Below are positions 40-53,321 of a stretch of 64,000 nt of DNA, one piece after another (the stretch's first letter is position 1; each line of letters begins with the position of its first letter). Under the pieces are notes generated by a model, which had not been told where the DNA came from, did not search any database, and saw nothing but the letters and a program-made list of their open reading frames with translations. Origin of the DNA: Candidatus Moraniibacteriota bacterium (GTDB lineage Bacteria > Patescibacteriota > Minisyncoccia > Moranbacterales > UBA1568); contig CAVZUR010000004.1 of the NCBI GenBank assembly GCA_963778555.1, positions 180,151 to 244,150 on the forward strand. Reading direction: 5' to 3'. The translations under genes were made by a program, and so were the position numbers.

Positions 40-342
40 ATGGACGCGATAGCTGATGTCGTTGCGGAGGGACTGGCCGTTCCAGAATTGTTGGGCAGGG
101 ATTTCAGCCCGAACAAGGTCATGGTGAATCTTTTGAGAACCCCAGAATTCGCTTTGCATTGGCCGCCCATTTACATCTCCATCATCGCCCCGCGCTGCGA
201 TGCATCGGTCCAGAGCCAAAATGAACTGGTGAAGCACGTTATTAGAGCGCTGAGAGAACTCCGGAGAAAGGAATGGATACATCCCGACAGACGGATTGGC
301 GTCAGGATTGAGTTCAGCGACAGCTCGTACGCCATTGTGTAG
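40..342 (+). CDS. hypothetical protein (C-terminal half weakly tautomerase-like beta-alpha-beta)
   Basis: ORF-track 100-aa ORF with plausible high-GC codon usage. It converges on the metzincin gene and is followed by a weak hairpin + T8 at ~366-398. No recognisable motifs. Confidence 0.3.
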   Translation: MDAIADVVAEGLAVPELLGRDFSPNKVMVNLLRTPEFALHWPPIYISIIAPRCDASVQSQNELVKHVIRALRELRRKEWIHPDRRIGVRIEFSDSSYAIV

Positions 343-391: not shown

Positions 392-1384
392 TTAGTTTGA
401 AAATTGATTCGAGAGTAGGCTCCAAGCTTCGCGCGTATCGCGGAGCATGAGGTCCCAGGCCGTGACCGAACAAACGCTCGTCAGCGCCGCCCGGTCTTCC
501 TTCGAGAACTCCATCTGTTGAATATCCTGCTCTCCCATCACGGGATACATGATCGAGCGTGGATTCTCCACATGCCCCAGGCCGAGCGCATGACCGAGCT
601 CGTGGACAAGCACCATGGCGAGATGATCGCGGTCGTCGAACTGATAGATGTCGATGCTCTGTCCTGCATATACCCCCTGATCGAACGACCCCTCCGTCCC
701 GTACTGCTCGGTGAACTCCTCGACACGACTATTGTAACGCTCCACCACCTTTTCCTCCTCCTTCGCATATCGATTCACTTCCGTGACAAGTGCGTTCACT
801 CGGAGGCGCTGCGACTCGATTACTGGCTGCTCCGCTTTCAATTTTTTGGCGTCTGATCGGATCGCATCGAATTCACCGGTATCTAAACGGTCACCCTGGT
901 TCCATTCGGCGACGCGCTGATTGTAGCGGTCGAGGCGTGCTTCAAAACTGGCAATCGATGCGTCATATGCCTGCCGCGCTTTCGCCAGCTCCGTGGAAAG
1001 CACATCGAATTTCCCCTTGATGGTCGTCTGCTTGGACTGGACCGCGTCCCATTCGCGCTCGAGCTTCTGGCTTTCTTGCGTCCGGGCCTGCCGTTCATCG
1101 AAGATGAGATTCACCGGAAACAGCGCTCCCGCTTCGTACTGGAATAGGTTCCGTCCGAGCGCCGCCTCCCAGGGTGCTTCGGCCTGTGCCACCGCGATGC
1201 GGAACTCCGTTTCCGAGAGACCGAAACGCGCGTCAAACTGCCCGATCGAGTAGGTGAGGGCCTGCTGGCACGGCACGCGGGTGTATTCGAACGCATAGAG
1301 CGTCCCTAAGGTGAGACCGAGAATAGCAATCCAAGAGAATATCCGTACAACCATAAGTCTTCTTATAGTAGCATTTCCGTCCAT
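392..1384 (-). CDS. membrane-anchored zinc metalloprotease, metzincin/matrixin-like (M10-type) with coiled-coil linker
   Basis: N-terminal TM helix (IFSWIAILGLTLGTL). Long charged coiled-coil region. C-terminal 'VLVHELGHALGLGHVENPRSIMYP' is a canonical HExxHxxGxxH zinc site plus Met-turn. Confidence 0.8.
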   Translation of the reverse strand: MDGNATIRRLMVVRIFSWIAILGLTLGTLYAFEYTRVPCQQALTYSIGQFDARFGLSETEFRIAVAQAEAPWEAALGRNLFQYEAGALFPVNLIFDERQARTQESQKLEREWDAVQSKQTTIKGKFDVLSTELAKARQAYDASIASFEARLDRYNQRVAEWNQGDRLDTGEFDAIRSDAKKLKAEQPVIESQRLRVNALVTEVNRYAKEEEKVVERYNSRVEEFTEQYGTEGSFDQGVYAGQSIDIYQFDDRDHLAMVLVHELGHALGLGHVENPRSIMYPVMGEQDIQQMEFSKEDRAALTSVCSVTAWDLMLRDTREAWSLLSNQFSN

Positions 1385-1474
1385 TGGCCTTTTGACAGCG
1401 GGCAGCGCCTGTTGCTAGTATCCAGGCGACGAAATCGTCCCCTTCCTTTACAATCCACCACCATCGGAGGCTCT

Positions 1475-1753
1475 ATGCTCATGTTCCGCATCATTTCACG
1501 TCCGCCAGGAACCCAATCGTACTGGATACGTGATCTCTGGATTGGCTGCGCCTTTCGAGTCCTCGCCGACCCGAATGATACGGAGACCTATCTGGTTCCG
1601 TCTGCCGCTGCATACACCGTCCTCACTGAGAAGTATGGCGCGGGCGTAACCGCTCACTTCTCCTTCCCAACCAACGGTCACATCCGCTTCCCGAAAAGCT
1701 GCTGCCAAATCATGGGAGCGAGCTCGCCCTCTCCACTCCACCCTATCCACTAG
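1475..1753 (+). CDS. small paralog P1 of a tandem family (PPG..IR..WIG N-motif, RFPxSC C-motif)
   Basis: In-frame M inside ORF 1412..1753. Shares 'RPPGTQSYWIRDLWIG' and C-terminal 'IRFPKSCCQIM' with the three downstream ORFs. Confidence 0.4.
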   Translation: MLMFRIISRPPGTQSYWIRDLWIGCAFRVLADPNDTETYLVPSAAAYTVLTEKYGAGVTAHFSFPTNGHIRFPKSCCQIMGASSPSPLHPIH

Positions 1754-1762
1754 GAGACCGAC

Positions 1763-2338
1763 ATGCCGATGATTCAGATCACGGACGTTATTCCGCCGAG
1801 CGAACTGGCCGAGGAACTTTCTGCGCGCCACGCCCTGGTTGGGCTGAAAGTCATGGCCGATGACCGCACCGTTCAGGGTCTCCGCGCCCTGAATCCGAAT
1901 CTGCCGCATCTCCCCGATACCTATGAGGTCGCGGGGCGCGATATGTTCGACGCTCTCTGGGATGCCAACCGCTGCGAACACGCCATCTACTGGCAGGACG
2001 TCATCCGGCCGCAGCTCTTCCGTATTCCGCTCCGCTGCGCGAGCGTCATGCACCGGGTTCGTATCGCACGGACTCCCAATCTCGCCACCCATCCGCTCAC
2101 GCATCTCGTTGCCCTCCAAGGGCTAGAATTCCTGCTCGATTTCGATGAGATCGCCGCGTGTTTTGCCGGTAATCCAGACCAGGAACGACCGCCGACTTGC
2201 TTTCTCCCCGTCCCGCGTAACCGCATTGTGACGCTCTTGAGGCAGGCGTATCGCAGTCTCTCCGCCGATTACTGGCAACGGCAAGACATCGGCTACCTTC
2301 CCATCCATGAATCGTGCTGCCAGCTCTGCGATTCTTAA
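1763..2338 (+). CDS. small paralog P2 (N-terminal family domain plus a degenerate second copy ending 'SCCQLCDS')
   Basis: Aligns with P3: 'LPHLPDTYEV..MFDAL..YWQDVIRPQLFRIPLRCA' vs 'PHLKDLPEAYEV..ALEAL..YWVDYLRRIVPPRLLRFPKDCA'. A 90-aa C-terminal extension repeats the Cys-containing end motif. Confidence 0.5.
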   Translation: MPMIQITDVIPPSELAEELSARHALVGLKVMADDRTVQGLRALNPNLPHLPDTYEVAGRDMFDALWDANRCEHAIYWQDVIRPQLFRIPLRCASVMHRVRIARTPNLATHPLTHLVALQGLEFLLDFDEIAACFAGNPDQERPPTCFLPVPRNRIVTLLRQAYRSLSADYWQRQDIGYLPIHESCCQLCDS

Positions 2339-2353
2339 CCCCAGGAGCGCACC

Positions 2354-2647
2354 ATGCAAAAAATCCATGTCGTGAGAACTCCCGCCGGCGCCGGACCGGA
2401 AGACGCGCGCCGCATCTGGGTCGGTCATGTCCTTCCTCTCGCGCCACCCAAACGCCTCGCCGAATTGCATCTCGAGTTTCCGCATCTCAAGGATTTGCCG
2501 GAGGCCTACGAAGTTGAATTCCGTGCTGCTCTCGAGGCCTTGGCGCTCGGCCCGTACCGCTACTGGGTTGACTACCTGCGGCGCATCGTACCGCCGCGTC
2601 TGCTGCGCTTCCCCAAAGACTGCGCCGAACTCACTGGCCACACCTAG
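2354..2647 (+). CDS. small paralog P3 of the same family
   Basis: 97-aa ORF, 16 nt after P2. Conserved 'TPAGAGPEDARRIWVGHVLP', 'YEV', 'YRYW', 'LLRFPKDC'. Confidence 0.5.
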   Translation: MQKIHVVRTPAGAGPEDARRIWVGHVLPLAPPKRLAELHLEFPHLKDLPEAYEVEFRAALEALALGPYRYWVDYLRRIVPPRLLRFPKDCAELTGHT

Positions 2648-2656
2648 GAATCCATC

Positions 2657-2953
2657 ATGACCAAAAAACTCCGCATCACCGTTACGCCACCTGGGGTCGC
2701 CCCACTATTCATCCGCGAGCAGTGGATCGGCATCGAGATCCCGATCAACGAAGCGGCCGTAGAGCATGAGCTCGAGACGGACCCGGCCTGGAAAGACTTC
2801 TCTGTGGACGCCCCCGGCTACCATGTCATGGCCCTCGATGCCATCCAGGCACTCACCGACGCCGGACGATTCAAAGCTGCCTACTTCTGGGATGGCATGC
2901 CCGGGACGATGTATCGCTTCAACCGCAGTTGCGGCGAGATCATCGAAGTCTGA
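2657..2953 (+). CDS. small paralog P4 of the same family
   Basis: 98-aa ORF, 10 nt after P3. 'ITVTPPGVAPLFIREQWIGIEIP', 'AAYFWD', 'MYRFNRSCGEII'. Confidence 0.5.
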   Translation: MTKKLRITVTPPGVAPLFIREQWIGIEIPINEAAVEHELETDPAWKDFSVDAPGYHVMALDAIQALTDAGRFKAAYFWDGMPGTMYRFNRSCGEIIEV

Positions 2954-3047
2954 TGACTCTCCGCCCACCCCGCGCCACGCGCAAACAAAGAGACGACCCA
3001 CCCCGGGCCGTCTCGCTTTTTTTATTCTATTCACTCATCCCTCAAAC

Positions 3048-4118
3048 CTATACCCTGAAATACTCCTTATACCATTCAACAAAATTCTTGATGCCAAGTT
3101 CAATGCGGGTGGTTGGCTTCCAGCCGAGCTTGCGCAGCTTGCGAATATCCGCGACGGTCGAGGGCACATCGCCGGGCTGGATCGGCAGCAGTTTCTTTTT
3201 CGCTTTCTTTCCCACGTTTTCCTCGATGACTTCGATGAAGCGAGTGAGCTTTTCTTCCTTGTCGCCACCGATGTTCATCACTCGCGCGATTGGCGTATTC
3301 GCCCGTCCGCGTTGTGCATCCGGGTAAACATCAAGGCAGGTCAGGATGCCCGAGACAATATCGTCGATATAGGTGAAGTTCCGCGTCATCTTGCCATGGT
3401 TGTAAACCTTGATGGTCCGGCCCGCGAGAATATCCTGGGTAAAAGTGAAGAGCGCCATGTCCGGCCGGCCCCACGGACCATAGACGGTGAAGAAGCGCAG
3501 TCCGGTCGTAGGGAGTCCATGGATATGGCTGTAGACATGCGCCATGAGCTCGGTCGCTTTTTTGGTCGCGGCATAGGGTGAGATCGGCGTATCGACAGAG
3601 TCACTCTCGGCAAATGGAAGTTTTTTATTGTTGCCGTAGACAGACGATGACGAGGCGTAGAGGAAATTCTTCACCCCGTACTTCACCGCGAGATCGAGGA
3701 GGTAGGTGGTGCCCATCACGTTCACATCGGCATAGAGGGCCGGGTTGCTCAGACTGTAGCGCACCCCCGCCATCGCCGCGAGATGGATGACTTTGTCGGG
3801 CTTTTCCTTTTTGAAGACTTTCTCGAGAAACTTCACGTCGCGGATATCGCCGCGATAGAGCGTAAACCCGCCCACCGCTCGCTTTCCGCTCGCGGTACTT
3901 CGGGCAGGCCGCCCTTGGTAGTCTTTCAGAAAAATCTTGATGCGATCCTCTTTGATCCGCGGGTCATAGTAGTCATTGAAATTGTCGATGAGAATCGGGG
4001 TGTCGCCGCGTTCCATGAGCGCCCGCGCGGTCGCCGAGCCGATGAAGCCCGCGCCGCCCGTGATCAGGACTTTGATGCCTTTCTGTTTCGATTTTTTCGT
4101 CGTTTTCTTAGTGGCCAT
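3048..4118 (-). CDS. NAD-dependent epimerase/dehydratase (UDP-sugar 4-epimerase, WbpP/CapI-like)
   Basis: 'VLITGGAGFIGS' Rossmann motif, 'SPYAATKKATE' YxxxK catalytic motif. Start placed at MATKK (cat at 4116-4118). The longer ORF-track N-extension is unlikely. Confidence 0.85.
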   Translation of the reverse strand: MATKKTTKKSKQKGIKVLITGGAGFIGSATARALMERGDTPILIDNFNDYYDPRIKEDRIKIFLKDYQGRPARSTASGKRAVGGFTLYRGDIRDVKFLEKVFKKEKPDKVIHLAAMAGVRYSLSNPALYADVNVMGTTYLLDLAVKYGVKNFLYASSSSVYGNNKKLPFAESDSVDTPISPYAATKKATELMAHVYSHIHGLPTTGLRFFTVYGPWGRPDMALFTFTQDILAGRTIKVYNHGKMTRNFTYIDDIVSGILTCLDVYPDAQRGRANTPIARVMNIGGDKEEKLTRFIEVIEENVGKKAKKKLLPIQPGDVPSTVADIRKLRKLGWKPTTRIELGIKNFVEWYKEYFRV

Positions 4119-4131
4119 AGACTCGAAATGA

Positions 4132-4923
4132 TTATTGACGAATGAGCTCTCGGATTCGTTTGAAGAGACCAGCAGGCCCGCCGCGCCGCATTTCACGGTA
4201 CGCATTGCCCGCAAGCTCAGCCACTCGTCCGATGGGCGATCCGGGACGGAACAGCGACTGCTGCAGTGCTTGACGCTGGGCGTGATGCCGTTCCCACTTC
4301 AAGGCCACCCGCTCGCGCTCTTGGGTCGTGAGCGCTCCCTTCCTGAGAACCAGCGTGAAGCCGTTCCCGATTTTATCATCTGTGTCCTGGAAGTCAACGA
4401 GCTCCCAATCGAGGCCAATTCCCCGGACCAATTCCACACCATCCTCCGTCACCCAGAAATTGCAGTGACCCGTCTCTATGTCTGGCGTCACTGCCAGCGT
4501 CCCCGCATGCCGCGCCTGAAGTTCGATGAGCATCGTCGGGGTTTGGTTCCGATCAAAAGTCCGCTCACGATGCGGCACGATCATGAATACATAGCCGCCC
4601 GGCTTTACCACGCGATACCATTCGAGAAGTGCCGCAATTGGGTCGGCAAAGTGTTCGAGGACATGCGATGATACCACGAAGTCCACTGATGCGTCCGGTA
4701 CCGGCAACCGATCCCCGGGCGCAACGAAATCGATCGGCGCTACCTCGCCAGAAATATCAAGCTCGCGTTTCTTGTAGGTACTTTCATTGAATTCGTCAGC
4801 AATGTCGACGTTTTTGGTATTGAGACCGAAGGGGTTATGCGCCGAGGCGCCGATTTCGAGTCCCGTGAGGCCGTCAAGGTACTGATGGGCAAGCCGGCTT
4901 TCCGGGAAAATCCGTTTCGCCAT
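4132..4923 (-). CDS. class I SAM-dependent methyltransferase
   Basis: 'GLEIGASAHNP' (motif I-like), 'VDFVVSSHVLEHFADP', 'VVKPGGYVFMIVP' typical of the Methyltransf_11 fold. Sits in the glycan cluster. Confidence 0.75.
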   Translation of the reverse strand: MAKRIFPESRLAHQYLDGLTGLEIGASAHNPFGLNTKNVDIADEFNESTYKKRELDISGEVAPIDFVAPGDRLPVPDASVDFVVSSHVLEHFADPIAALLEWYRVVKPGGYVFMIVPHRERTFDRNQTPTMLIELQARHAGTLAVTPDIETGHCNFWVTEDGVELVRGIGLDWELVDFQDTDDKIGNGFTLVLRKGALTTQERERVALKWERHHAQRQALQQSLFRPGSPIGRVAELAGNAYREMRRGGPAGLFKRIRELIRQ

Positions 4924-4924
4924 A

Positions 4925-6109
4925 TCAAACTGGCTTCAGGACAGAACGCAGATAGTCATAGTACGCCTCGTTCGTGGCATTTGCGTTCGTGTATTTTTCC
5001 AGCGCCGATTCCTCTGCCGCCTGGCCCATCCGGACGCGGAGCTCGTGGTCGGCGATGAGCCGCTCGATCTTTTCCACCCACTCGTCCGAGTTGCCGGCGA
5101 CAAAACCATCAGTGCCATCAGCGATCGCTTCGCGGAAGGTCTGCGTCGCGGCCGCGACGGTCGGCACGCCGACGATTCCCGCTTCAAAGAACTTCAATTC
5201 GGATTTGGATTCGCAGAACGGATTGCCGATCTCCAAGGGCGCGAGATTGATGTCGAGCGAGGCGATAACGTCAAACAATTCGCGGCGCGGAACGAATGGT
5301 TGCCGCTCGATCTGGCTGGCATACGGCGCAAACCGATCCTCCAAGAGAAGTGGTCCGACGATGACGAGTCGAAGCTCAGAGTGTCGATCGAGAAGGGTGA
5401 TGAGCGCGTCGGTAATCGTCGCGAAGTCTTTGTTGTGGCTCGGCGTGCCGGAGAGGTAGCCGATGCTGAGGAAGCGTTCCCTCATCCCGATGTCTTTCTT
5501 GCCCGCGCCTCATCCGCCCAGACGACATCCTGCTGCTGAGAGCCGATTCGGGACAATGAAGACTTCTTTTCCCCTTTCCCTCAACTTGTCCGCGAGAAAA
5601 CTCGTCGTGGTGGTTGCGACGGTCACGTGTGGGTCGGCGAGAATTTCACCGCCGACGCCCTGCGCGTAGAGTTTCCGCTCGAGCGTATTCATCTGATGCC
5701 AATAATCCATGTGCACCAGGAACGCTGGATCGTAGACGAGATCGTCGGTTTCAAAAATGATGGTCTTGCCAAGCGCTTTCACTCGCGCGATGAAGCGCGC
5801 GATTTTCGGCGTCATGAGAACACGGTGGAGAATGAAAACCTGGAACTCATCCGCATACCCGAGCAAGCGAGGATTATCCTGCACGGTGACGGATGCCCCG
5901 AAACCATGCAGCCGAAGCTCTTCGGCGACATGCGTCGTCCGATAGCGCGCGCTGTCTCCCACCCCGCCCGAGATGAAGAGGATATCGCCGGGCGCCACGG
6001 GAGCGAAGAGCGCCGCAAAGGCCGTCGCGACGCGCCGTCCGCCGCGCACCAGGCCATCGCGCTGGATCACGCTCCAGGCTTTCCCGATTTTGATGAGGAG
6101 AGTTTTCAT
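4925..6109 (-). pseudogene. GT4-family glycosyltransferase interrupted by a single in-frame TGA at the inter-domain linker (or split gene)
   Basis: ORFs 5510..6109 (N-terminal Rossmann domain) and 4925..5485 (C-terminal domain with E-x7-E 'ESKSELKFFEAGIVGVPTV') are in the same frame. They are separated by one TGA plus 8 codons. Confidence 0.5.
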
Positions 6110-35935: not shown

Positions 35936-38683
35936 TCAAGGTCCCCGTATTCCTCGCTCCACTGATCGGTCATACGCTGTCGTCGTGCTGTACATATCCT
36001 GGGCATTGAAGGACCAGTAGCCTTCAAGCGATGTATCGACGCCGGTGGGGGTAGTGAGGCGATAGAGGTTGGCGATCTCTTCCTGGGAGAGAGCGCGGTC
36101 ATACACCCGCGCTTCATCGAGGGAGCCAGCGAAGGGCACACCGTTGTCGGCTTCAGCGCCGAGACGGAAAGCCACCGCATTGGCCAGGGTGCCGATGTTT
36201 CCGATGGTGCCGGTATCGGTGGCGCCATTGGGAGCGCCATTGATGTAAAGCTCGGTCCCAGTCGCCGAGTCTTGATCCCAAACGAAGGCGAAGTGATTCC
36301 AACCCGCAGCGGTGAAGGTAGAGGCTGAGGTGACGGAGTACTCATCGACCGCATCCGAGACTTCGCAGATGAGGGCGTCGGCGGCGGAGATGTAGCAGAG
36401 ATAGCCGGTATCGGCGGCGGTGATGCCGTTTCGTTTGGCGATGATGGTATCGTCGGTGGTGAAGGTAGAGCGGTTGAACCAGCCGGTCAGGGTGAAGTCT
36501 TCAGTATCAGCGAAGTCAAGAGTGGCCGTATCGGCCGTGGTGGCATAGTCATCGGTGCCGTCAAAGGTGATACCTGAGCCAATCTGTCCGGTGGTCCAGG
36601 TGGGGCCATTGGTGAGGGTGAGGGAAGCGATGGCGTTGGTGGAGGAGTCAGCGGCGGCGGTACCGGTGTTCTCGTCGAGGGTGAAGTAGCCGGTGAGGCC
36701 AGAGTCGAGACGGCCGGTGCCTTGGGATTGGGAGACAGAGGAGTTCACCTTGTCGGGAGCGCTCTGGTCATACAGGGATTTGATCTCGGCAGCAGAGAGA
36801 AAACGATTGTAGACGCGGACTTCGTCGATTTCACCGTCAAAGAACTCTGCCGCGGCAGTTTCAATGGCGCCGATACGAAAGCTCGAGGAAGCATCGGCAG
36901 GCGAAGTACCGACCGGCGTACTGTGTTCCAGCACCGGTACGGAAACACCGTTAATGAAAAAGGTTGGGTCATTGGCGACGGATGAATCATTGTATTCGAC
37001 ACAGACATGCGACCAGGCATTCAGCGGGACAGCGTCATCGGGTGCAGCCCAGCGGCCGATAGTCGTCCCGAAGCCGACCCATAATTGCAGCCGATTCGGG
37101 CTGACAGTATCGCTGAATTCAAAGTCCCACCCCGTCCCAGCATCATCCTTGGACATGATATTGGCGTACGTGGCCGGTATCGAATCCGGATGAATCCAGG
37201 CACAAGCGGTCAAATTGGCGATATCGTCGAGACTCGTCCCTGAGCCAGCATTCACATAGTCTGCCGTCCCATCGAAATCAAGTGCTTGGCCGAGTCTGCC
37301 CGGTACCTTGGGCGGAGCGCTGACCAGTGTCCCCGTATTCCTCGCCCCGCTCCGATCATACGCCGTCGTCGTGCTGTACATATCCTGCGCATTGAAGGAC
37401 CAGTAGCCTTCAAGCGCTGTATCGACGCCAGTGGGGGTAGTGAGGCGATAGAGGTTGGCGATCTCTTCCTGGGAGAGAGCGCGGTCATACACCCGGGCTT
37501 CATCGAGGGAGCCAGCGAAGGGCACACCGTTGTCGGCTTCAGCGCCGAGACGGAAAGCCACCGCATTGGCCAGGGTGCCGATGTTTCCGATGGTGCCGGT
37601 ATCGGTGGCGCCATTGGGAGCGCCATTGATGTAAAGCTCGGTCCCAGTCGCCGAGTCTTGATCCCAAACGAAGGCGAAGTGATTCCAACCCGCAGCGGTG
37701 AAGGTAGAGGCTGAAGTGACGGAGTACTCATCGACCGCATCCGAGACTTCGCAGATGAGGGCGTCGGCGGCGGAGATGTAGCAGAGATAGCCGGTATCAG
37801 CGGCGGTGATACCGTTTCGTTTGGCGATGATGGTATCGTCGGTGGTGAAGGTAGAGCGGTTGAACCAGCCGGTCAGGGTGAAGTCTTCAGTATCAGCGAA
37901 GTCAAGGGTGGCCGTATCGGCCGTGGTGGCATAGTCATCGGTGCCGTCAAAGGTGATGCCTGAGCCAATCTGTCCGGTGGTCCAGGTGGGGCCATTGGTG
38001 AGGGTGAGGGAAGCGATGGCGTTGGTGGAGGAGTCAGCGGCGGCGGTACCGGTGTTCTCGTCGAGGGTGAAGTAGCCGGTGAGGCCAGAGTCGAGACGGC
38101 CGGTGCCTTGGGCTTGGGAGACAGAGGAGTTCACCTTGTCGGGAGCACTCGTGTCATACAGGGCTTTGATCTCGGCGGCGGAGAGGAGGCGATTATAAAC
38201 ACGGACTTCGTCGATGGAGCCGTCGAAGAATTCCGATATATGTGCGCCGATGACAAGATTGGCTGCAGCATCGCTTGTTGCTGTCCCTACCGGCACGTCT
38301 AGCTCCGTAAAACGAACAGAGACGCCATTGATGTACAAAACCGGGTCGTTGGCAGCTGAGGAATCATTGTAGGTCGCGCAGACATGTTGCCAGGCATTGA
38401 GTGTTATCGTACCGTTGGCCGTGAGCCAATTCGCATTATTAGTAGTAAAACTTCGAAAAAGATCCAGAGCATTCCCGCTAGCCACATTGGTAATCTGAAA
38501 TGACCAGCCCGCCGATCCTGTATACTTGGCAGCAATTTGAGCCCAGGTGATAGGAATTGACTGCGGATAGATCCAGGCGCAGACGGAAAGGTTCACTAAA
38601 TCATCTACGATAGCGGCTGATCCCGCATTCACCAAGTCCGCCGTTCCATCGAAATCAAGTGCTTGGCCAAGCTTCCCTGGCAC
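35936..38683 (-). CDS. giant surface protein, central part: two full ~460-aa tandem repeats, each with two LamG/concanavalin-like domains
   Basis: 915-aa ORF with internal near-identical 460-aa repeats ('KVNSSVSQ[AS]QGTGRLDSGLTGYFTLDENTGT...LDEARVYDRALSQEEIANLY...FDGEIDEVRVYNRFLSAAEIKSLYD'). The ORF ends where the repeat junction gains +2 nt. Confidence 0.7.
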   Translation of the reverse strand: MPGKLGQALDFDGTADLVNAGSAAIVDDLVNLSVCAWIYPQSIPITWAQIAAKYTGSAGWSFQITNVASGNALDLFRSFTTNNANWLTANGTITLNAWQHVCATYNDSSAANDPVLYINGVSVRFTELDVPVGTATSDAAANLVIGAHISEFFDGSIDEVRVYNRLLSAAEIKALYDTSAPDKVNSSVSQAQGTGRLDSGLTGYFTLDENTGTAAADSSTNAIASLTLTNGPTWTTGQIGSGITFDGTDDYATTADTATLDFADTEDFTLTGWFNRSTFTTDDTIIAKRNGITAADTGYLCYISAADALICEVSDAVDEYSVTSASTFTAAGWNHFAFVWDQDSATGTELYINGAPNGATDTGTIGNIGTLANAVAFRLGAEADNGVPFAGSLDEARVYDRALSQEEIANLYRLTTPTGVDTALEGYWSFNAQDMYSTTTAYDRSGARNTGTLVSAPPKVPGRLGQALDFDGTADYVNAGSGTSLDDIANLTACAWIHPDSIPATYANIMSKDDAGTGWDFEFSDTVSPNRLQLWVGFGTTIGRWAAPDDAVPLNAWSHVCVEYNDSSVANDPTFFINGVSVPVLEHSTPVGTSPADASSSFRIGAIETAAAEFFDGEIDEVRVYNRFLSAAEIKSLYDQSAPDKVNSSVSQSQGTGRLDSGLTGYFTLDENTGTAAADSSTNAIASLTLTNGPTWTTGQIGSGITFDGTDDYATTADTATLDFADTEDFTLTGWFNRSTFTTDDTIIAKRNGITAADTGYLCYISAADALICEVSDAVDEYSVTSASTFTAAGWNHFAFVWDQDSATGTELYINGAPNGATDTGTIGNIGTLANAVAFRLGAEADNGVPFAGSLDEARVYDRALSQEEIANLYRLTTPTGVDTSLEGYWSFNAQDMYSTTTAYDRSVERGIRGP

Positions 38684-51308: not shown

Positions 51309-53321
51309 TCAAGATTCATTCTCCTTTTCCTGGCGAGCGCCATCAATGAGCGCCCGGACCGCACTAACGTTGATATCTGGCTTTCGGCGCAGCGCCTTAA
51401 ACTTCTTGGGTTCAATATGCTGGGTCTGAGAGAGTTTCATCGGAACTTCGGTAGAGGCATAGGCACGATGCTCGGTCGAACGGCGGTGCCCCTCCTCCGG
51501 TTTCCGGTCGACGGTCCGCGTCTCCGCGGCTGGCCTGGATTTTTCCAGCTGCGCTTGGCGCTCTCGCGCTACCGCTCGCTGATAATCACGCAGACAATCC
51601 TTGCAGAATGTCGGCCGCGAGGCATCCGGCTCAAATGGCACCTCGATATCAATGCCGCATGTCGCGCAGACCGCCGGATAGAGGATTTTTTCCGGGACGG
51701 TTTCGGGCAGCGTTTCATCAGCCGTGCGCTCTGTTTCTTCTAGCGTGAATGTTGGAGGGACGATGATCGGCTTCGCCAAAACGGGCGACACTTTCTTTTC
51801 AACCTTTTTCGCCTCTGAAGAAAGTGGCACTGGCGTTTCCTCCAGCAGCGGTATTTCAGCCGTGGCGAAGGAGTGAGCAGCCGCGGGTGCGACCGACTGT
51901 TGCACCGACTTCACGACCGGCTTGGAGACGGGTCTCGGTAGCGGTTTCGGAATCGGTTTCGGCCGCGGGGTAATCGGGGCTGGCGCAGGCGTCGCTGCCG
52001 GTGCGGGTCGCAGCGCCGCTTTCTCTTCATCCGTGAGCATGCCGGTCCAGCGACGAATCTTGTCCTCAACCTCTTGCTGCGACGAAGCATAGCGTTCGCG
52101 AGAACCAGCGATAACTTTATCGTTGATGCCCGGCGTTTCAATCAGAATCGGCGGTAAGGTCGTCGCCGAAAACGCGTCACCAGCGATGCCGTCGATCATG
52201 AGTTTCAGATAAATCTGGTATTTCGGTAGATTGATCAGGTCATTCATCATGAAGACCGGCTCGAATTCTTTTTCGAGGAGCTCCGCGTCGGGCGCGCCGA
52301 CCCGGAAAGCGACCAGCGTCCCGCAGTTGCCGAAAACCGCATCACTCACTTTTTCCTCAAGCTGCGTGATGTATTGGTTGGCGAGAATGAGCGACAGACG
52401 GTATTTACGCGCCTCGGAAAGAATGTTGGCGAACGAATCCGTCGCGAAATTCTGGAATTCGTCGACGTAGAGGTAGAAGTCCTTGCGTTCTTCCTCTGGG
52501 ATATCAGCCCGGCCCATCGCGGCAAGCTGGATTTTGGTGATCATCATCGCGCCCAGGAGCGCGCTCGAATCCTCGCCGATCTTGCCCTTGGCCAAGTTCA
52601 TGATGAGGATCTTCTTGTTATCCATGATTTCGCGCACATCGAACGCGCTCGTCGGCTGGCCGATGATGTTGCGGATGAGACTGTTCGATGTGAACTGCCC
52701 GACCTTGTTCTGAATCGGCGAAATAACTTCTTGCAGTACGCGCTCATTCCAACCGGCGAACTCGACGGTCCAGAACTGCTTCACCACTGGATCAGTGACT
52801 TTCTCCATCACACGTTCTCGGTAGCTTTTGTCGACAAGAATACGCATGACGCCCAACAGGCTCGCGCCCGGGTATTCAAGGAGAGCGAGGATAGCATTCC
52901 GCAGGATATATTCGAGCCGCGGCCCCCAAGAATCGGCCCAGATTTTCTTGAAAACACCGACCAAGCCCGACGCGACAAGCGACCGCTGGTCAGGTCCGAC
53001 CTGTTCGAGTACATTAAACGCGATCGGGAACGCCTGATCGGCCGGATCGAAATAGATGACATCGTTGATACGCTCCGGCGGGATGGCTTTGATGAGCTTT
53101 AACGCGACATCACCGTGCGGATCGATAAAGCAAATACCATGACCCTGCTGGATATCTTGGATAGCGAGGTTCTCGAGCAGATTGGTCTTGCCCATACCCG
53201 TCTTGCCCAAGAGGTACATGTGCCGCCGGCGGTCATCGGCTTTGATGCCGAACACGCGTTCCTGATTGCGGAAATTAGTCTTGGCGAAGACTGTGATTGG
53301 ATTGTCAGTGGGCTCAGGCAT
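51309..53321 (-). CDS. soluble VirD4/TraD-family (type IV coupling protein-like) P-loop ATPase with Pro-rich linker and C-terminal C4 zinc ribbon
   Basis: 'YLLGKTGMGKTNLL' Walker A, 'FYLYVDEFQNF' Walker B, 'ILANQ'. No N-terminal TM. 'PAPAATPAPAPITPRPKPIPKPLPRP' linker. 'CATCGIDIEV...PTFCKDC'. Confidence 0.7.
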   Translation of the reverse strand: MPEPTDNPITVFAKTNFRNQERVFGIKADDRRRHMYLLGKTGMGKTNLLENLAIQDIQQGHGICFIDPHGDVALKLIKAIPPERINDVIYFDPADQAFPIAFNVLEQVGPDQRSLVASGLVGVFKKIWADSWGPRLEYILRNAILALLEYPGASLLGVMRILVDKSYRERVMEKVTDPVVKQFWTVEFAGWNERVLQEVISPIQNKVGQFTSNSLIRNIIGQPTSAFDVREIMDNKKILIMNLAKGKIGEDSSALLGAMMITKIQLAAMGRADIPEEERKDFYLYVDEFQNFATDSFANILSEARKYRLSLILANQYITQLEEKVSDAVFGNCGTLVAFRVGAPDAELLEKEFEPVFMMNDLINLPKYQIYLKLMIDGIAGDAFSATTLPPILIETPGINDKVIAGSRERYASSQQEVEDKIRRWTGMLTDEEKAALRPAPAATPAPAPITPRPKPIPKPLPRPVSKPVVKSVQQSVAPAAAHSFATAEIPLLEETPVPLSSEAKKVEKKVSPVLAKPIIVPPTFTLEETERTADETLPETVPEKILYPAVCATCGIDIEVPFEPDASRPTFCKDCLRDYQRAVARERQAQLEKSRPAAETRTVDRKPEEGHRRSTEHRAYASTEVPMKLSQTQHIEPKKFKALRRKPDINVSAVRALIDGARQEKENES

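Follow-up and report, generated by a model that had tools for sequence, protein, structure and literature searches.

The window analyzed here is a 64,000-nucleotide (nt) stretch of DNA from a Candidatus Moraniibacteriota bacterium (assembly GCA_963778555.1, contig CAVZUR010000004.1, positions 180,151 to 244,150 of the forward strand). It contains a tandem array of four small genes, P1 to P4, which lie on one strand and stand head-to-head with the gene for a matrixin, a metzincin (Table 1). Spacers of 9, 15 and 9 nt lie between the genes, and each gene has a Shine-Dalgarno-like AGGA or GGAGG sequence on its 5' side. When the domains they encode were compared pairwise by BLASTP, they were 25–30% identical, with E values of 1e-4 to 1e-8, and the N-terminal half of P2 matched its C-terminal half at E 4e-4. 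We also used a hidden Markov model (HMM) made only from unrelated members of the protein family described below, leaving out the window sequences and the closest relative of P4 (74% identical). Among the 939 six-frame open reading frames (ORFs) of the window, this independent HMM matched exactly the five domains of P1–P4, and the next best match had an E value above 1. The paralogy of P1–P4 is weak in sequence, yet real. P4 is the copy nearest to the canonical family (PPGxAPxxIRxxWIG).

We compared the array with that of the closest relative, locus L001, which is 82% identical at the nucleotide level from within the metzincin gene to about 40 nt into P3. Substitutions between the two were enriched at third codon positions, and the ratios of nonsynonymous to synonymous substitution (dN/dS, Nei-Gojobori) were 0.22 for P1, 0.16 for P2, 0.11 for the C-terminal domain of P2 and 0.12 for the metzincin. 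Because of the third-position bias and the low dN/dS we regard these as genuine genes under purifying selection; together with the homologues found, these results rule out non-coding or chance ORFs. P1 and P2 in particular are old, orthologous and under purifying selection. The highest Kyte-Doolittle value over 19 residues was 1.23 in P1–P4, as against 1.85 at the N-terminus of the metzincin, and by this measure P1–P4 contain no hydrophobic segment of transmembrane strength. Because of this, and because the topology of membrane-tethered relatives also puts the domain inside the cell, P1–P4 are predicted to be four soluble cytoplasmic proteins that carry five copies of one domain of about 95 residues.

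The promoter-like site of the array sits within the 90-bp divergent intergenic region (1385..1474), and both of its hexamers, as well as a downstream GGAGG, are conserved in aligned intergenic regions from seven genomes. At the other end, the RNA of positions 2950..3040 folds with −22.5 kcal/mol (z −4.4) into a hairpin followed by UUUUUUU, and the terminator segment is 91% identical to that of L001 although the genes preceding it differ. From these DNA signals we read 1475..2953 as one operon that has ribosome-binding sites, a terminator and a strong, conserved promoter of the sigma-70 type.

Table 1. Features of the window referred to in the text (aa, amino acids).
Feature	Position	Strand	Description
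P1	1475..1753	+	92 aa, paralog class B; independent family HMM E 2e-10
P2	1763..2338	+	191 aa, paralog class C; domain a ~1763..2050 (HMM E 1e-11), domain b ~2048..2335 (E 4e-7)
P3	2354..2647	+	97 aa, paralog class D; HMM E 9e-19
P4	2657..2953	+	98 aa, paralog class E; HMM E 7e-26
Promoter-like site of array operon	1392..1421	+	TTGACA, 18-nt spacer, TAGTAT, TG before the -10; 10/12 consensus match
Terminator hairpin and T-run after P4	2990..3022	.	11-bp stem, 7 G-C pairs; also faces the convergent epimerase gene
M10 matrixin	392..1384	-	Pfam PF00413 E 9e-13, 48.8 bits against a cut-off of 24, aligned residues 42-303
NAD-dependent sugar epimerase	3048..4214	-	Pfam Epimerase E 1e-54; second conserved border of the array islet
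ORF convergent with the metzincin	40..342	+	100 aa; no Pfam, NCBIfam, PADLOC or PHROGs match, no similarity to islet genes of relatives
Group-1 glycosyltransferase	4925..6109	-	one 395-codon frame with a single in-frame TGA (5510..5512), codon 200
915-aa protein	35936..38683	-	four TafC-type fimbrial matches, all under family cut-offs
670-aa protein	51309..53321	-	TraD-like coupling-protein N-terminal matches, under cut-offs; CxxC-x17-CxxC domain, the only match above cut-off

Much of what a first-pass annotation had claimed from the letters alone agrees with these results: four same-strand paralogous ORFs with an internal duplication in P2, 'SCCQ[IL]' endings in P1 and P2, no signal peptide or transmembrane helix in any of the four, a divergent region of about 90 bp, a membrane-anchored coiled-coil metzincin as neighbor, and a family that had not been described. 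Its question whether the ORFs might be non-coding was settled in favor of coding. The spacing is short, as it had said, but the spacers had been given as 10–16 nt. It had also called the extra copy in P2 degenerate, and here it was mistaken; a decaying second domain is ruled out, since the two-domain protein is kept in at least four genomes and its C-terminal half shows the low dN/dS given above.

When 1.84 billion cluster representatives were searched exhaustively with a profile, 309 family proteins came out at E≤1e-3, 21 of them at E≤1e-10. Word-indexed searches, whether with a five-domain profile or with an 87-sequence profile, gave almost only the queries themselves and their close relatives, so that the exhaustive search was required. 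Most members are single-domain proteins of 90–105 residues, and the consensus of the 87-sequence alignment reads IRIxxxPPGxAPxxIRxxWVGxxIPL ... GYxV ... AxxALxxAG ... AAxxW ... LxFxxxCCE. None of the 87 had a Pfam match, and neither P1–P4 nor their relatives from isolates had a match above threshold in NCBIfam, PADLOC, PHROGs or Pfam. The family profile found no match among PDB sequences, the best being a weak one to the RNase P protein Rpp29 (E 0.21). Every source name found for a member was 'hypothetical protein', and Pfam scans of the longer members gave no informative fusions. We also scanned species genomes with a degenerate DNA motif for PPGxAPxx[IV]RxxW[VI]G, which gave at least 120 loci; 118 of those listed were confirmed by HMM. 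Among their sources are Planctomycetota, Verrucomicrobiota, Bradyrhizobium and other Proteobacteria, Acidobacteriota, Cyanobacteria and several Patescibacteria, with two archaeal metagenome-assembled genomes (MAGs), one of Methanobacterium and one of Methanosarcinales. The family is genuine and uncatalogued, and in the many bacterial phyla and the two archaeal MAGs over which it is scattered it usually occurs as a single orphan gene.

Within the family R20, W23 and G25 are near-invariant, and a cysteine stands in the last hairpin of 79 of 82 members, doubled (CC) in 31 of them; P2a, P3 and P4 have one cysteine only. Conserved residues are mostly hydrophobic core positions, and the proteins are acidic (median isoelectric point 5.4). 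Two members, P0069 and P0148, have a signal peptide and a transmembrane helix ahead of the domain, an arrangement that puts the domain in the cytoplasm; P0111 has its transmembrane helix at the C-terminus. A proteobacterial subfamily of about 120 aa (L008, L012, L025, L047, L071) has its domain interrupted midway by a hydrophobic insert. In four loci (L019, L020, L037, L109) the family gene is split over two frames, and these are probably pseudogenes or sequencing frameshifts. One protein of 746 aa with five weak matches (P0142), by eye a repetitive histone-H1-like sequence, was treated as a false positive.

The AlphaFold2 model of P4, made with the 87-sequence alignment, has a mean predicted local distance difference test score (pLDDT) of 93.9 and a predicted template modeling score (pTM) of 0.85, and contains five strands and four to five helices. 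With this model Foldseek returned nothing at E≤1 in the PDB and nothing at E≤0.001 in BFVD. The best structural matches were SH3-like barrels, aligned over about 50 of the 98 residues, namely the five strands. The similarity to such small beta-barrels (SH3, PsaE, PetP, KOW/Spt5, Rpp29) is faint; it consists of those strands plus the weak profile match to Rpp29. The fold of the domain is predicted to be a small five-stranded barrel with inserted helices, only faintly SH3-like. The model of P2 (6-sequence alignment, pLDDT 82.6, pTM 0.64) repeats the secondary-structure order of P4 twice, with only two of five models confident, so that the packing of the two domains against each other is provisional.

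We then compared the surroundings of matrixin orthologues (59–67% identity) in related genomes. The layout is an epimerase, a methyltransferase and glycosyltransferases, followed by small ORFs of the family, the divergent matrixin and more glycosyltransferases; the epimerase/methyltransferase/glycosyltransferase block flanks the arrays in L004, L128, L130, L132 and L134. From an all-against-all comparison of the small proteins of these islets we named five classes, A to E; each consists of orthologues from different genomes, and the order of the classes is kept, class C being a one-domain protein or a two-domain fusion depending on the genome. The window has B (P1), a two-domain C (P2), D (P3) and E (P4). 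Its closest relative L001 has B, a two-domain C and D, L003 has B and a two-domain C plus an unrelated 125-aa gene, and L132 has A, B, a two-domain C and D. There are A, B, C and D plus a YaaC-like gene in L130, B, C and D plus two unrelated genes in L128, and B and E plus two unrelated genes in L134. L004 has C and D and no matrixin, and L135 has a matrixin (44% identical) and none of the classes. P1 has orthologues in L001 (L001_g1, 77% identical), L003 (L003_g1), L128 (L128_g1), L130 (L130_g2), L132 (L132_g2) and L134 (a 122-aa gene). Two-domain orthologues of P2 are found in L001, L003 and L132 (57–86% identity), and single-domain ones in L004, L128 and L130. Class D orthologues of P3, in L001, L004, L128, L130 and L132, are 35–53% identical. 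P4 is absent from L001; a 74% identical protein, P0006, occurs elsewhere, and a 32% identical relative in L134. Between genomes whose matrixins are 60–70% identical, the small proteins are 21–69% identical.

The difference between the window and L001 is concentrated at the distal end of the array. When window positions ~2394..2970 were set against L001 positions 1892..2157, there was a sharp break in identity: in place of P3 there is a class D gene of 44% identity, P4 is absent, and the 91% identity resumes at the terminator. This break suggests cassette-like recombination, and the P3/P4 end appears to have been swapped between close relatives. The array is the content of a variable islet between the conserved epimerase and the membrane matrixin, with 2 to 5 domains per genome. 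The family was duplicated long ago into divergent classes in a Moraniibacteriota-like subclade of the Patescibacteria, and among the loci examined tandem arrays occur only in this subclade.

The islets also hold variable genes that are unrelated to the family (L128 2672..3802, L130 2426..3577, L134 2508..4039, L003 3026..3403). They include the YaaC-like gene of L130, which gave the only Pfam match among the other islet genes, a 125-aa family common to L003 and L128, a 223-aa hydrophobic and probably membrane-bound protein, and proteins of 180 aa and 305 aa. In L134 a gene for a four-helix-bundle protein of the 23S-rRNA-IVP/bAvd type (1031..1402) lies between the methyltransferase and the epimerase.

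Outside this clade the family gene was single in each of the 118 listed loci. Its orientation to its neighbors was near random, and most gaps exceeded 50 bp. Clustering of 586 neighboring ORFs gave a largest neighbor family that was present in 8 of the 118 loci, and shared ancestry could explain those 8. With flanks of up to 8 kb and crude gene calling, no recurrent or toxin-like neighbor was found, the upstream same-strand genes being short and unrelated, and no locus had an ORF with the metzincin motif HExxHxxGxxH near the family gene. Because there is neither a recurrent neighbor nor such an ORF, the family as a whole is without a toxin or protease partner.

The matrixin beside the array carries the zinc motif HELGHALGLGH in its translation. 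Its residues ~96–230 gave coiled-coil matches of SMC/JetC type, so that the catalytic domain is interrupted by a coiled-coil insert of about 130 residues, and its N-terminal hydrophobic segment (the value of 1.85 above) is a predicted membrane anchor. We found 605 homologues at E≤1e-10, and most of those listed are of similar length; among those that carry a name, most are called 'matrixin family metalloprotease [Candidatus Moraniibacteriota bacterium]' or come from Patescibacteria. A literature search on matrixins of Moranbacteria and Patescibacteria found nothing relevant.

The array is set in a chromosomal block for envelope biosynthesis, beside housekeeping genes, and its flanking genes are the matrixin, the epimerase, a methyltransferase and glycosyltransferases. 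Because SufB, SufS, ProRS, DnaX and HtrA are also encoded in the window, we take it to be ordinary chromosome. The true start of the epimerase is probably the ATG near 4085. The glycosyltransferase orthologues of L128 and L132 have ordinary residues aligned to the in-frame TGA at codon 200 of the window gene (Table 1), and a nonsense mutation, a split gene or an assembly error could account for this TGA.

The best reading we can offer, a tentative one to which we give a probability of about 0.35, is that the copies act in parallel as putative intracellular protein-binding modules of diversified specificity, organized like a polyimmunity locus of polymorphic-toxin systems. Each copy would bind its own target inside the cell, as in a homogeneous polyimmunity locus, with P2 as its 'poly-domain' protein, and P1–P4 would be neither subunits of one obligatory complex nor inhibitors of the metzincin. 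We prefer it because of the variable composition, the exchange of the distal cassette, the fusion of two domains in P2 and the occurrence of the gene singly elsewhere. Several observations weigh against it. Pfam includes the Imm and SUKH families, and the test for an immunity family failed, with 0 of 87 members matching Pfam and no member standing beside a toxin gene, the defining feature of immunity families, in the 118 listed loci. Genomes whose matrixins are only 60–70% identical have orthologous classes B, C and D in one fixed order, and the core classes represented by P1 and P2 are under purifying selection, with dN/dS of 0.1–0.2; such stability is greater than polyimmunity loci usually show and would also suit a complex. 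Among the genes flanking the array there was no recombinase, and the near-universal C-terminal cysteine could point to chemistry and not to binding. The first-pass annotation had spoken of an immunity-type array that was rapidly diversifying. The organization does resemble a homogeneous polyimmunity locus, but the toxin neighbors are missing, and the rapid change applies to the P3/P4 end only, P1 and P2 being old and orthologous.

The stability of the core is what a hetero-oligomeric cytoplasmic assembly, structural or regulatory, would lead one to expect, with each class holding its own position and P2 forming a linked pair of subunits. B, C and D have the same gene order in six genomes with short or overlapping junctions, one promoter would drive all the copies, selection is purifying, the two-domain fusion is conserved, and both halves of P2 are folded in its model. 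Yet the composition varies, L134 being limited to B and E and L004 to C and D, and classes A and E occurring in two genomes each; the family is a single lone gene in every other phylum among the listed loci, and the packing of the two P2 domains is provisional. We consider such an assembly unlikely, though it ranks next after parallel binders. A functional tie between the matrixin and the array, or at least P1, as inhibitor, folding or insertion helper or co-regulated partner, seems to us improbable, and it keeps the standing it has mainly because class B is always the copy adjoining the metzincin. The head-to-head arrangement recurs in L001, L003, L128/129, L130/131, L132/133 and L134, a conserved intergenic region of about 90–120 bp is found in seven related genomes, and class B, like the metzincin, is lacking in L004. 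A single deletion of neighboring DNA could account for that joint loss, however, and L004 keeps C and D without a matrixin while in L135 the epimerase directly abuts a matrixin with no array. Nor is a compartment shared with the catalytic domain indicated, since P1–P4 have neither signal nor transmembrane segment and the matrixin anchor, following positive residues, would put the catalytic domain outside and leave about 10 residues in the cytoplasm. The protease/inhibitor system proposed in the first-pass annotation did not stand up on these grounds. The co-occurrence on which it would depend is present in seven related genomes, broken in L004 and L135 and absent from the 118 other loci, and P1–P4 are probably not inhibitors of the adjacent metzincin. 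We infer that the two stand side by side as clade-level synteny around a divergent promoter region that they share.

Slightly less probable still is that the family is a small cysteine-dependent catalytic, redox or metal-binding protein of which the array supplies isoforms. The conservation of the last-hairpin cysteine and its frequent doubling, together with the near-invariant R20, W23 and G25, would fit such chemistry; the family has no similarity to a known enzyme, thioredoxin-like or metallochaperone fold or profile, most of the conserved residues belong to the hydrophobic core, and P2a, P3 and P4 keep a single cysteine. Derivation of the array genes from phages or mobile elements, for example as anti-defense genes, was also raised in the first-pass annotation. 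It would account for the patchy taxonomic distribution and the frameshifted copies, and a Gam-like ORF lies upstream of the gene in L112, judged by eye only. Against it, the array proteins had no PHROG match, tblastn with a typical member found nothing in 50,697 phage records or 72,556 plasmids, and the motif scan of IMG/VR gave 0 matches in 2.9 million viral contigs, compared with at least 120 genome loci with the same motif; the array is also embedded in the chromosomal envelope-biosynthesis block. A phage or mobile origin is largely refuted, and we hold it to be very improbable. We thus rank parallel binders first, then a complex, a tie to the matrixin and cysteine chemistry, in that order.

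The result matters in several ways. Here is a protein domain family outside every curated resource, with several hundred sequence clusters in many phyla and a confidently predicted fold without a solved homologue, and it merits a database entry and a structure whichever reading holds. The family has expanded into an operon in one clade of the ultra-small Patescibacteria, whose small proteins are for the most part unexplained. Should the copies prove to be diversified binders, the locus would give access to conflict or host interaction in uncultured episymbionts; a complex, on the other hand, would mean a new conserved assembly in the cytoplasm. It is doubtful, but conceivable, that the family is a putative neutralizer or binder family new at the level of the fold, whose arrays would be the first polyimmunity-type locus of diversified specificity described in candidate-phyla-radiation bacteria, directed against toxins of hosts or competitors, or else a new small cysteine-based effector with isoforms at the cytoplasmic face of envelope biogenesis.

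Two known systems invite comparison. Inhibitors of the Inh/AprI type are exported to meet their protease. The array resembles serralysin/AprA with Inh/AprI in that a small protein gene adjoins a metzincin gene, and differs in that P1–P4 have no signal peptide, are unrelated to anything in Pfam and lose the pairing outside one clade. The closer likeness is to the polyimmunity loci of polymorphic-toxin systems, in which distant paralogs share one orientation and short spacers, content differs between strains and multi-domain fusions occur (Zhang, de Souza, Anantharaman, Iyer and Aravind, 2012; PMC3482391). Apart from the failed immunity-family test and the stable, orthologous core, our locus differs from these in lying outside the lineages listed for extended polyimmunity loci, which do not include Patescibacteria, and in having no adjacent recombinase, a gene that is found next to several such loci and is not obligatory (PMC3482391). 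It shares with them tandem genes of one orientation at short spacers, which imply a single polycistronic message (PMC3482391). In the window there are one promoter-like site and one terminator. Its genes encode distant paralogs of one domain, all five copies matching one independent HMM, and P2 is a two-domain fusion. Content differs between close genomes, L001 being 82% identical at the nucleotide level with a P3 only 44% identical and no P4, and others having 2 to 5 domains, yet B, C and D are stably orthologous; as in polyimmunity loci, no toxin gene lies within the locus. What is new here is the domain family and its fold, for which there is no solved relative; what belongs to an already known kind is the arrangement, in which small diverged paralogs form a tandem operon within a variable islet.

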